Virus record (IMG/VR): IMGVR_UViG_3300031454_000255 | Location: 1,779 to 65,778 of that record | DNA: 64,000 bases | Direction: 5' to 3' (one strand) | Source of the DNA: a virus | Shown here: positions 18,589-32,806 of the stretch, piece after piece | How positions within the stretch are numbered: the stretch's first letter is position 1 | Layout: the number at the start of each line of letters is the position of its first letter | Program-made: the position numbers and the translations under genes | Notes under the pieces: model-generated | The model's input: the letters and a program-made list of their open reading frames with translations, nothing else | Databases searched by the model: none | Told to the model about the DNA's origin: nothing

Positions 18589-18972
18589 TTATCTGATTTC
18601 CCAGGCAATGCGCCATTTTCGGCTTTCACGAAACAATTTCATTTGTATGGATTCTTTCGAGCCACCATTAAATAAAACATCGCCGATAACGCCCGCTGTT
18701 TTAAAATCAATTAATTTGTTTCTGAGATTAAAACCTTTCAAGCCGCCTGCGCTTTTGCAAGATTTATTCCAAACCTCAAATGCTAAGTCTATAACCGATT
18801 TGTGCAGACGAACCGTTGAAGAAAGTTGCTGTTTTGCTTTGATAAAATCGCCGCCACAAATATCTTGATAAAATGTTTTCACAGTATCGGACGGGCGCGG
18901 CACAGCGAATATATTGATATTCAAACTTAAAGTAAAAACAAACGCCAAAAACAATCCGAAAAACATTTTCAT
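18589..18972 (-). CDS. Secreted/periplasmic moron protein (NTF2-like fold suspected)
   Basis: Signal peptide MKMFFGLFLAFVFTLSLNINIFA; PSDTVKTFY...KWRI pattern. Confidence 0.65.
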   Translation of the reverse strand: MKMFFGLFLAFVFTLSLNINIFAVPRPSDTVKTFYQDICGGDFIKAKQQLSSTVRLHKSVIDLAFEVWNKSCKSAGGLKGFNLRNKLIDFKTAGVIGDVLFNGGSKESIQMKLFRESRKWRIAWEIR

Positions 18973-19010
18973 TTTCGGATTGTAGCTTTAAAGATTTGAG
19001 TTTGAAAAGA

Positions 19011-19205
19011 CTAAATTTGAAGTTCCTTGACCCGCCGCGCCTCTAACGCTTCTAAAACCAAATCCATATAAGCCGGAATTTCAAGCCGACCCGTTTCGTA
19101 GCCTGAAACAGTATTTGAAGCAAAGCCGAGAATTTTAGCTAATTCGCTTTGTGTTAATCCTAACCTTTCGCGCCGTTTTTTTAGTTCGGTTTTTTCCATT
19201 CTCAA
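19011..19205 (-). CDS. XRE-family helix-turn-helix regulator
   Basis: LKKRRERLGLTQSELAKILGFASNTVSGYETGR; paralog of 56481..56720. Confidence 0.85.
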   Translation of the reverse strand: MRMEKTELKKRRERLGLTQSELAKILGFASNTVSGYETGRLEIPAYMDLVLEALEARRVKELQI

Positions 19206-19340
19206 AATATATTCTAAGTATAGAAATAAATCAAATAGATATGATTTTATCTCTCTGTTAGATTGACAACTATATTTTAGATATAGTAAGATATATCTAC
19301 GTTAGAGATAACGAATAAAACAAAAGGACGGAAAACGGAA

Positions 19341-19499
19341 ATGCAGAAAATTAAAATCAACGGCTACACGGTGACAATCTTCAACCACTACAACGGAACG
19401 CAGTTATTTATTAACGATTCAAAAGGCGTTCAAATCTACGCTCATAAAGTTACGGGCGATGCGATGCTGCGAGCTTTGGAAATAATCGGACAAAACTAA
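19341..19499 (+). CDS. Small hypothetical protein, 52 aa (not in ORF track)
   Basis: Manual translation MQKIKINGYTVTIFNHYNGTQLFINDSKGVQIYAHKVTGDAMLRALEIIGQN; purine-rich RBS; same position as 33191..33391 in the twin module. Confidence 0.6.
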   Translation: MQKIKINGYTVTIFNHYNGTQLFINDSKGVQIYAHKVTGDAMLRALEIIGQN

Positions 19500-19505
19500 A
19501 AACGA

Positions 19506-19545
19506 AAAGGTTTAGATAAGTTCGCGCTTACCTAAACCTTTCTTT
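19506..19545 (+). terminator. Intrinsic terminator-like hairpin
   Basis: AAAGGTTTAGATAAG-TTCGCG-CTTACCTAAACCTTT followed by CTTT. Confidence 0.6.
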
Positions 19546-19571
19546 AATCCCTTCGGGAAGGAATCATCAAT

Positions 19572-30600: not shown

Positions 30601-31542
30601 GGCAACGCTTCCCGTATAACCTTTTGTTAATTTGTCGGCATCTCCGGTGTTTGCTTGCGCTTCTTTAAGCAAGCCATTAAAAACGACTTGTCTAACCGAT
30701 GCGTCAGATGTAATGTTCATTACATCTTTTTTTGATTTGCCGTTTTCTTCAAGAATAACGGAAAGATTTTTTGTAATGCCAGCGTTATCGATTAAAATTG
30801 AATTGCCATTTTTTAAACCCTCACTCGCACCTCTGATTGCTTCACCAAATCCTAATGCGCTCTGTTTACCAAACGCCGCCGAATCGGAAAAGGCTTCATA
30901 AAGTTTAATAGCTTGAGGCAAGGAAAAACCTGTTGCCAGTAAGTTTTTTAATGCGGTTGTCGCTTCGCCAACGTCCACAATTCCCGCTTTAACAAGCCTG
31001 AAACTTTGAACCGCGCTTTGAGCTTCCGTCGGATTGATGCCTTTGAAAGTTGCAATAGATTCAAGACCTTTTAATGCGTTTTCCCGTTGCTGCGCTATTT
31101 TTACGGCTTCGTCTAAAACTTCGGATATTTTGGAAGGAATTTGATACAGAACGCTTGTAAAATTACTAACGATTGTTCCGGCGAGGCTGCCGAAAAAACC
31201 GCCTGAAAAAGCAGACTTAAACGCCGATTGACTTTTGTTGGCGGCTTTTTCCGCTTCATCGCCGATTGGCTTGAAACTTGACGCAAATCTGCCGTTTGAG
31301 TCGCGCAGCTTATCAGTTGTTTTTTCAAGATTTCCGAGCGAACCGCTGACATCGGTTGCGGTTTTTTTTGCCGAAGTGCTAATTGAATCAAAGCCGGTTT
31401 TGAACGCGGAAAAGTTCGCGCCTTTTTCGGCGTTTTTTACAAACTGCTGGACAAATTGCGAAGCGTCCGTAAGAGTTTTTTTGATGCCCGAATTATCTCC
31501 GAGAATCTTAAAAGTCAAACTTGCCGCATCTGAAAACCCCAT
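27685..31542 (-). CDS. Tail tape-measure protein 2 (1285 aa) with lytic transglycosylase (SLT) domain
   Basis: Follows a G/GT chaperone pair; SLT motifs AEQYGIPASLALAQIFSESSFN, FGLTQFLPSTA, GDWELAVFAYHNG; C-terminus shared with tape-measure protein 1. Confidence 0.85.
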   Translation of the reverse strand: MGFSDAASLTFKILGDNSGIKKTLTDASQFVQQFVKNAEKGANFSAFKTGFDSISTSAKKTATDVSGSLGNLEKTTDKLRDSNGRFASSFKPIGDEAEKAANKSQSAFKSAFSGGFFGSLAGTIVSNFTSVLYQIPSKISEVLDEAVKIAQQRENALKGLESIATFKGINPTEAQSAVQSFRLVKAGIVDVGEATTALKNLLATGFSLPQAIKLYEAFSDSAAFGKQSALGFGEAIRGASEGLKNGNSILIDNAGITKNLSVILEENGKSKKDVMNITSDASVRQVVFNGLLKEAQANTGDADKLTKGYTGSVAGLDQAYKNLYASGGKLITQSPEMISANRILAKQVQGITGDLNKQGSETAKTAAEWIKFYAEVKVASISFAAFVKNLFLGVTTGVAGFALGIVGSVTFVIEGVVNGIKTAIGTISNYLVDVAGKLVNLIPAGISDKIDYLQANLEQLKGGLKIDAAFDLPVTKGIFDQASKFLKDSSDYGQKMLKAVDETNASWKELKKQSDELRKNEADRLRNQTIKPKYFDNKGKQIDSGGDASGGDAKTDKKKSGKISDAGFEGFATNRQTAVYQAALRDLSPELRAQIVKTAEQYGIPASLALAQIFSESSFNAKAKSPFNANVGQNAFGLTQFLPSTASAVLGKKTTGKDLFNSETALTAYGKYMTKLFEEFGDWELAVFAYHNGEGAARAFAKALDSGNKKQIKSFAEGNPKGIAYTKKISSLSGVSGKEQFQYANDDEAQKKVAKIDDEATKRREQSQAKSLLSSIKSLDEEVSLRESANKVILADQETLLKNGEINEQGFARIRALLDDDLLQKKKKNKESELALVKEYNRKELEDFDKQAAKELERAKPEDKAALKAKLADERLALAKENSQEETAVKIELQKLDDDIAVQAKKNQQEISDATKKSVAERKEAELSLLQIRRDVAIAEQNLATFRAEQRRKVLVNEIEFLSGAAKREAIENLRQDDLKQNEQRRKDLIDNLNGEEKSEKEAAKKRISNKEDEEKQKLEITKKYKLLRDGVNAEAGDKKLDINEGARTETKTSYDGSPIGEIGKQIQQGLAGADASKEKLALYAPVADTVTQSFSKMAQAAGSAVRAFVLFGSAGGGFRKFAAEMIASIAQMATVQAVWETAQGLAMLALAYFGIHPTAAVSATEHFASAAVYAGIAGIAAGVGRSVAGNSFSDQTASGGATGKNSGNIQTTQGRGGSGNGGTAFSSNTTDDKRIESNRNSPQRIELVFTHKVESNNSHILQTVQTAIADRHPIHGQIVSLAEG

Positions 31543-31552
31543 AATTCACCAC

Positions 31553-31832
31553 TTACCAAACTTCACTTTTTTCTTCGTTTTCCTGGCTACCTTCATCGTC
31601 GGATTTGCCGCCAAAAATTGCGCCGATTTCTTCGGCGATAAACCGCGCCAATCTTCTATCGCGTGCCGTATCTTCGATTTGTAGACGCTCTGTTGCCGCC
31701 AAATCAAAAGCGACGGCGGCAAGGCTGTTTTCGCCGTAAAGTTTATCGAGACCCGCTAACCTGCTGGCGCGCTCGTTTAAGTTTCGACTTGCTAACGCCA
31801 GCCACAAAAGATTCGTATCGTTCACCACGAAA
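31553..31832 (-). CDS. Tail assembly chaperone T-frame (GT extension) 3
   Basis: +1 frame entered at TTT CGT: FVVNDTNLLWLALASRNLN...FDLAATERLQIEDTAR. Confidence 0.7.
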
Positions 31833-32219
31833 TTTTTCCGCGTCCGCAGCACCCCCCGTGACAATCCAATTTTGCAAAATTTGAAAGTCTGCCTGTGGTA
31901 TGTCTTCGTGCGCGATTTCGTCGTCTGATTCTGGGTTTGCCGATACACGCGGCTCGATTGCAATGTATTCAATGGCTTTTTTGGTGAAGGCTAAAGTTTC
32001 GTCAAAGTCTTCTTCTGACATTTGACCGAGTTCAACAGGTTTTTCTTCAATAATTGTTTTCTTGATTTTTTCGGCTAGAAAAGTCGGCAGTTTTCCGGCA
32101 AGCAAGTATTGTTCAACCGGAAATTGTCTAACTTTCCAAATGCAATTCGGCGTTGCCATCGGTAAATCAAAAACTAAATCATTAGCTTGTGTTTGTTTTT
32201 TGTAATCGGATGCTTTCAT
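31743..32219 (-). CDS. Tail assembly chaperone G 3
   Basis: Paralog of the other two G genes (IW.VR, EPRVSANPESDDEI, LQNWIVTGG). Confidence 0.75.
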   Translation of the reverse strand: MKASDYKKQTQANDLVFDLPMATPNCIWKVRQFPVEQYLLAGKLPTFLAEKIKKTIIEEKPVELGQMSEEDFDETLAFTKKAIEYIAIEPRVSANPESDDEIAHEDIPQADFQILQNWIVTGGAADAEKFRGERYESFVAGVSKSKLKRARQQVSGSR

Positions 32220-32231
32220 TTTTTGTTAATT

Positions 32232-32380
32232 GAAAAAAGAAAACACCCGCCGAAAAAATGACTAAATCATTTCTTTAGCGGGTGTGCAGTTCCTTTTGGA
32301 AGTATAGACCCTGAATTAATTTTTTTTCCGTGTTAGCGGATTGACATTATTTTGCTTGATTTTACTAAAAAAAGCAAGAA
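32232..32380 (-). promoter_or_regulatory. Leader D: GGGTCTATAC box, small hairpin, terminator-like hairpin
   Basis: GGGTCTATACTTCC-AAAA-GGAA; ACACCCGCTAAAG...TCGGCGGGTGT-TTTCTTTTTT; TTGCTT upstream with only a weak -10 match. Confidence 0.7.
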
Positions 32381-32383
32381 TTA

Positions 32384-32806
32384 TTACTTACCGCGAAACT
32401 CAATAGATGAAATTGTTAAATCGCTATTACCACCCGCGCCGCAAGCGTATGCGGTAATTTTTACCTTTGCGTTTTTTACGAGTTGATTTTTTAAGTTTCT
32501 TTTGTCAGATTCCGAAAAACAATCAAGTAAATCTTCATCGAATAAATGAATAATAAATCGTTTGCCGTTTGATTGCTGGACGGTAACGGCTGTAACTTTA
32601 TCGCTCTCATTTTCAGAATAAGCTAATCCGGTAATATTGCCCGAATAACTTCCAATCCTACAACTAACATCTTTCGCAAAATTGGAATTGATATTACTTA
32701 TTTTTGCAATGCCTTTTAGGTTGTTTTTAGTTGCAGGGCATTTAGATTGACCGTAACCGCTAACCGTAAACACAAACGCCAAGAACAATCCGAGAAACAT
32801 TTTCAT
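32384..32806 (-). CDS. Secreted/periplasmic moron protein
   Basis: Signal peptide MKMFLGLFLAFVFTVSGYG|Q; its 5' 47 bp match 18938-18984 at 45 of 47 positions. Confidence 0.7.
   Translation of the reverse strand: MKMFLGLFLAFVFTVSGYGQSKCPATKNNLKGIAKISNINSNFAKDVSCRIGSYSGNITGLAYSENESDKVTAVTVQQSNGKRFIIHLFDEDLLDCFSESDKRNLKNQLVKNAKVKITAYACGAGGNSDLTISSIEFRGK

Follow-up and report, generated by a model that had tools for sequence, protein, structure and literature searches.

The 64,000 nucleotides analysed here (the window), which make up nearly all of a 66-kb virus record from rock metagenomes (IMG/VR record IMGVR_UViG_3300031454_000255, positions 1,779 to 65,778), come from a siphophage of Pyrinomonadaceae type that encodes two whole tape-measure proteins (TMPs), TMP-A and TMP-C, and one stub, TMP-B. 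Beside these lie the genes of three exported proteins, SP1, SP2 and SP3. The genes are AT-rich morons, and their products carry Sec-type signals and have three unrelated folds. The reading put forward here, which is given about an even chance of being right, is that they occupy a swappable moron slot in which SP1 is an exclusion inhibitor of the SLT lytic transglycosylase domain in TMP-A, with SP2 and SP3 being envelope morons that have no demonstrated match. A matched pair, keyed on the enzyme domain, is plausible for this one module because the central muralytic domains of related TMPs differ, because SP1 passes a complex prediction with the SLT domain, and because an SP1 homologue co-occurs with an SLT-bearing TMP in an independent provirus.

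The complex prediction covered one pair, SP1 with the TMP-A SLT domain, and this was examined because TMP-A-type proteins differ in their central enzyme domain. The pair passed with a score of 0.80, the best of three controls scoring 0.00. Of 80 solved complexes, 58 reach the pass mark, as do two of 110 mismatched pairs, counts that are rough here since the alignments were author-supplied. Three runs gave 0.80, 0.02 and 0.80, with a contact agreement of at least 67% and a predicted local distance difference test (pLDDT) score of at least 74 for the partners. The predicted interface sets the catalytic Glu616 and both SLT motifs against SP1 residues 121-129, the one SP1 loop that is conserved across host and phage homologues, and SP1 is thereby predicted to bind the SLT domain with this loop in the catalytic cleft. 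As a mechanism, SP1 would be exported to the periplasm, its Ala-Cys-Gly-Ala-Gly-Gly loop would enter the cleft, and incoming phages carrying that SLT enzyme would be stopped from opening the peptidoglycan at DNA injection, as Spackle does to the gp5 lysozyme in T4. The match would be keyed on the exchangeable enzyme domain and not on the TMP backbone.

That this domain is exchanged can be seen in the TMP-A-type proteins, which diverge at residues about 560-750, each with a different central muralytic domain. It is SLT in TMP-A (E 2.5e-17, with its catalytic Glu and motifs preserved), an M74-like peptidase in the relatives L070 and L040, and in L039 another lysozyme-like domain, assigned by motifs and a weak baseplate-hub hit. 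As the enzyme domain swaps, so the slot gene is different in each of the TMP-A, L039 and L070 loci. An early reading, that the data refute any pairing, was dropped once these enzyme domains proved to differ. A second candidate pair, the L039 lipoprotein family and the lysozyme domain of L039 type, is no more than a lead; a similar L017 lipoprotein scores E 0.002 in its own genome, was not found in six other records and has a pairwise BLAST E of 0.53. An enzyme domain was looked for in TMP-C and none was detected, and TMP-B is deleted to a stub, so SP3 and SP2 are without a testable match. The sequence-only reading had proposed lock-and-key pairs throughout; at the level of the enzyme domain this is plausible for SP1 and TMP-A, and no match was found for SP2 and SP3.

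A scan of viral contigs for the SP1 family gave a single match, at 37% identity, in the immunity region of the provirus G403. The G403 TMP (1678 amino acids) matches TMP-A in the SLT domain only (42%, E 2e-25), and its SLT is much closer to that of TMP-A than is any host SLT (best host E 9e-10); the host-genome tallies for SLT genes and for the SP1 and SP2 families take in the unpublished genomes G016, G020, G035, G145 and G175, on which no single claim or alignment depends. SLT domains are rare in TMPs, being present in two of 45 that were collected and in none of 27 further homologues, and the chance of such a co-occurrence arising at random is put at a few percent, on one observation. G403 also encodes a second SLT-domain TMP-like protein of 1365 amino acids between the portal and head genes (L174 6665-10762).

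Several observations weigh against SP1 being an excluder directed at TMP-A. TMP-A is encoded away from the canonical position and may be absent from virions; one of the three prediction runs scored 0.02, and cousins of a true partner also pass such predictions. The co-occurrence comes from a single independent phage, no SP1 homologue occurs in another, complete phage that has a distant SLT-bearing TMP, and neither L040 (M74 domain) nor L016/L017 (L039-type domain) has an adjacent moron. Furthermore, SP1 homologues are found in 14 of 281 host genomes, in chromosomes and islands and mostly without phage or SLT neighbours, so host transglycosylases may be the real target. A rather improbable alternative has SP1 inhibiting a lytic transglycosylase for another end, whether to regulate host enzymes or to shield the wall of the producer against the enzyme of its own TMP or against progeny that re-adsorb. 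The retention of the loop in chromosomal homologues would suit such a role, as would the presence of one homologue beside prophage lysis genes (L159/L172) and of SLT genes in every host genome but one, whereas the putative promoter and terminator that SP1 has to itself fit expression from a repressed prophage, and the G403 homologue sits in the immunity region, a usual place for exclusion genes.

The Sec-type signal peptides and unrelated mature domains that the sequence-only reading had assigned to the three proteins were both borne out. By a hydrophobicity heuristic, the second residue is Lys in all three, hydrophobicity peaks at 2.8-2.9 over nine residues, and cleavage would fall at a site of small residues. 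The mature proteins show no membrane helix, with every 19-residue window below 1.0; paired cysteines and the lack of an anchor, likewise heuristic, point to the soluble periplasmic type. The mature domains, with net charges of +5 (SP1), 0 (SP2) and +9 (SP3), gave zero phmmer matches among themselves and are therefore unrelated, and their predicted folds are OB for SP1 (Atlas model), BLIP/PsbP/DUF4309-like for SP2 and NTF2-like (DUF4878) for SP3. For SP2 the single-sequence fold was unusable (pLDDT 32), and an aligned model (pLDDT 85) reached a middling best Z of 7.7 with nothing in Foldseek at E 0.001, for which reasons no function was drawn from it; a word-indexed protein search and GenBank phages yielded no SP2 homologue. 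In the Juhala definition a moron is an addition within a conserved operon that is absent from relatives, has a GC content unlike its flanks and a promoter and terminator of its own, and is expressed from the repressed prophage. Around 37 of 41 relatives run from tube to chaperone to TMP without such a gene, and GC content is 0.36-0.38 for the three genes and 0.41-0.54 for the tail genes around them. Signal-peptide genes are also common elsewhere in the late operons of these phages (window 10369-12846; L004, L015, L037 and L049).

Co-variation of moron family with TMP family was a claim that did not hold. Sequence comparison indicates that the two do not co-vary; pairing is random at the family level, the outcome that the sequence-only reading had itself named as telling against it. 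Among the 41 relatives with a visible tube-to-TMP interval, an exported gene lies between tube and TMP in four (L020, L039, L042 and L070) and directly after the TMP in four more. TMP-A and the TMPs of L039 and L070 find one another as best hits and have chaperones that are 67-87% identical, but the morons beside them are unrelated, those of L039 and L070 being lipoproteins. Conversely, the moron families found twice (the SP2, Adhesin_E-like and L042 families) accompany TMPs whose mutual ranks are 13-44 of 44, in a small sample where two of the three comparisons involve truncated TMPs. Scans of viral contigs with the tube protein (direct) and the TMP-A N-terminus found nothing.

The full model, in which each of the three proteins locks its own TMP and the pairing selects for whole-module swaps, is now very improbable, even though such a gene stands in all three modules, one pair passes complex prediction and exported genes flank TMPs in eight other loci. 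Morons differ within one TMP family, and TMPs within one moron family; L044, the closest complete relative of TMP-C, lacks such a moron; the cassette of SP3 and its helix-turn-helix (HTH) gene precede a TMP-A-type module in L070; and TMP-B is a stub. Far less remote, if still unlikely, is an ordinary insertion hot spot, where three unrelated envelope morons, used for receptor masking or host fitness, hitchhike with tail segments and the SP1-SLT model is false or a generic pass. The random family pairing agrees with this, and so do the signal-peptide genes elsewhere in the late operons, the independent travel of HTH cassette, slot gene and leader, and the occurrence of the SP2 family in 96 of 201 host genomes, mostly adjoining housekeeping genes. 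It is harder to reconcile with a predicted contact centred on the active site through one conserved loop, or with an independent SP1/SLT-TMP co-occurrence when SLT TMPs are rare.

The anatomy of the slot is that of exchangeable parts. The idea of separate signal-peptide proteins holds for the unrelated mature parts and fails for the signals of SP1 and SP3, which are not independent: their 5' ends have 90 nucleotides at 81% identity and 14 of 16 N-terminal residues in common, and so represent one cassette with swapped mature domains. The same cassette precedes the two unrelated lipoproteins of L039 and L070 and matches three further contigs with other flanks, while pattern scans for it in viral contigs and 401 host genomes found nothing. 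The -10 box of the SP1/SP3 cassette, six bases upstream of the ATG, suggests a leaderless mRNA. An inverted repeat over the start codon, with invariant 7-bp arms 15 nucleotides apart (window 18951-18983 and 32785-32817), is found in four morons and may serve as an operator or a site of exchange; the start of SP2 is covered by an unrelated hairpin (23364-23393).

Downstream, the leaders consist of a putative promoter and a terminator-like hairpin and are sited where antisense inserts break the late operon. The recurrent form (promoter, conserved motif and terminator hairpin) is present in the three copies of Table 1, at about 6056-6126 and in L039 (9228-9298), and resembles a late promoter requiring antitermination. 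For the morons, a consensus -10 and hairpins are present and conserved in four copies, and overall promoter matches (41 versus 32 +/- 6) are little above chance; an Rfam search of the leaders gave no match. Copies of the leader also precede the neck and tail-tip genes with no exported-protein gene there; the copy after SP2 is degenerate, its hairpin included. The HTH cassette, the slot gene and the leader each move without the others, and homologues of the HTH gene with divergent cassette 1 are also arranged as a chromosomal island lacking SP gene, moron and TMP. In L124-L127, the same HTH gene and divergent cassette with a RelA/SpoT-domain gene make up a chromosomal island adjoining yicC, and early-gene-like cassettes (HTH, SWIM, ParB-like, helicase) follow the tube or chaperone gene in L014 (11199-13768), L020 (9678-16823) and L039 (3541-9127). 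With such parts, the three genes would act as prophage morons, each expressed from its own promoter and exported by its Sec signal, with the downstream hairpin halting read-through into the tail genes, and the slot would have been stocked with captured host-type envelope proteins.

The late operon is on the minus strand, as are the open reading frames of SP1, SP2 and SP3 (Table 1), and homologues of its TMPs come from Pyrinomonadaceae and Aridibacter. It begins with head genes, a neck-gene stub of 46 amino acids, antisense cassette 1, an HTH gene, SP1, a leader, chaperone A and TMP-A. It continues with a leader, the intact neck gene, tube, chaperone B, an antisense toxin-antitoxin pair, SP2 and the TMP-B stub, and ends with antisense cassette 2, an HTH gene, SP3, a leader, chaperone C, TMP-C and the distal tail. 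Each SP gene had been placed just upstream of a leader and a chaperone or TMP gene; SP1 and SP3 do precede a leader and chaperone, and SP2 is followed by the degenerate leader and the 172-amino-acid stub. The three-moron arrangement is a real feature. An assembly chimera or artefact was ruled out by a single contig covering 17468-33857 with zero differing letters and even depth, and by a 172-kb contig that repeats the layout, both possibly from the source samples.

Table 1. Features of the late operon around the three exported-protein genes (window coordinates; aa, amino acids; nt, nucleotides)
Feature	Coordinates	Strand
SP1, exported protein of OB fold, 140 aa; putative TMP-A lytic transglycosylase inhibitor (loop residues 121-126)	32384..32806	-
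SP1 5' cassette: -10 box 6 nt upstream of ATG (putative leaderless start), inverted repeat, first signal codons	32766..32852	-
HTH_17 gene, divergent from accessory cassette 1	32849..33070	-
Antisense accessory cassette 1 (HNH and small genes)	33464..35543	+
Leader A: conserved motif, short hairpin, terminator-like hairpin	32234..32324	-
Tail assembly chaperone A (G, plus overlapping T frame)	31553..32219	-
TMP-A, 1285 aa, non-canonical position (upstream of neck and tube genes)	27685..31542	-
SLT domain within TMP-A, lytic transglycosylase (residues 585-731, intact catalytic Glu616)	29350..29790	-
Leader copy ahead of neck gene, without exported gene in front	27299..27392	-
Single major tail tube gene and chaperone B	24586..25903	-
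RelE-like toxin and HTH antitoxin, divergent from SP2	23426..24134	+
SP2, exported BLIP/PsbP/DUF4309-like protein, 191 aa, common host family	22808..23383	-
TMP-B stub, 172 aa	22188..22706	-
Antisense accessory cassette 2 (three HNH/endonuclease VII genes)	19572..22025	+
XRE HTH gene; 87% identical DNA in L070 ahead of different moron and TMP-A-type module	19011..19199	-
5' cassette of SP3, homologous to SP1 cassette	18932..19021	-
SP3, exported NTF2-like (DUF4878-like) protein, 127 aa	18589..18972	-
Leader C with 20-bp terminator-like hairpin	18412..18507	-
Tail assembly chaperone C (G and T frames)	17726..18398	-
TMP-C, 1241 aa, adjoins distal tail gene; no enzyme domain detected	13995..17720	-

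Elsewhere in the window, one tube gene is common to three chaperones and two complete TMPs of similar length (13995-31542). A contig from run X1 that matches 17588-17720 and 18283-18331 shows a related chaperone-C/TMP-C module whose depth in the sample is about eight times that of this phage. The tail-tip protein (2424-6056) ends at its C-terminus in a pretoxin HINT domain, and an antisense HNH gene splits off its likely N-terminal part. A GIY-YIG-like endonuclease gene lies between two lysozyme-like genes (50633-51142 and 49266-50820), the first of which it has apparently truncated.

Among known systems, SP1 probably works like Spackle of T4 and not like gp15 of HK97. Spackle (gp61.3) inhibits the gp5 tail lysozyme (PMC7677548), and the likeness proposed for SP1 is that of a soluble periplasmic phage protein inhibiting a virion muralytic domain; SP1 is of this type by heuristic, and the phage encodes an intact virion-type muralytic domain. 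The proposed target differs in being an SLT domain within a siphophage TMP, SP1 is an OB-fold prophage moron whose inhibition is only proposed, and Spackle acts allosterically around the cleft whereas the SP1 model puts a loop in it. No Pfam or PHROG match links SP1-3 to Spackle. HK97 gp15 (PMC3594210, PMC10883804), the precedent invoked by the sequence-only reading, is alike in lying near chaperone and TMP genes, in having its own promoter and terminator, which are putative for SP1-3, odd GC content and a host-derived family, and in a proposed tail-dependent exclusion. The analogy is nevertheless wrong in kind, as gp15 is a small inner-membrane YebO-like protein (PMC3594210), unlike SP1-3, which are soluble proteins of 127-191 amino acids with cleavable signals, other folds and no YebO or phage-family match in Pfam or PHROGs. 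The site is HK97-like for SP2, which alone lies between chaperone and TMP, and not for SP1 and SP3, which precede the chaperone. Ltp of Streptococcus phage TP-J34 (PMC3952083) is also an envelope protein aimed at the TMP, and recalls the lipoprotein slot genes of L039 and L070, but it is an acidic repeat lipoprotein that binds the basic TMP C-terminus, whereas SP1-3 are neutral to basic and neither a lipobox nor an Ltp domain was found in them. Tab/anti-Tab of phage JBD26 (PMC10884400) is another moron defence that targets the TMP; Tab, however, is cytoplasmic, blocks assembly and needs anti-Tab, and SP1-3 are exported.

A broader and more doubtful proposal is that the TMPs of these acidobacterial phages swap their central cell-wall enzyme domain and that prophages answer with a slot, having a fixed promoter and signal start and a variable mature domain, of cognate periplasmic inhibitors. 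SP1 would then be the first member of a new family of OB-fold inhibitors of lytic transglycosylases, and two complete TMPs could let a phage change keys and keep several locks. In the open-access literature, neither an OB-fold transglycosylase inhibitor nor an inhibitor of a TMP-borne SLT domain was found. Since SP1 and its proposed target domain are both small and soluble, they would allow the molecular working of TMP-dependent exclusion to be studied in vitro, with no need for cultures of the phage or its host. Should SP1 not inhibit, it would be one more moron at a well-known hot spot. If it does, the Spackle mechanism would extend to long-tailed temperate phages, and SP1 would represent an undescribed family of lytic transglycosylase inhibitors that is also found in host chromosomes.

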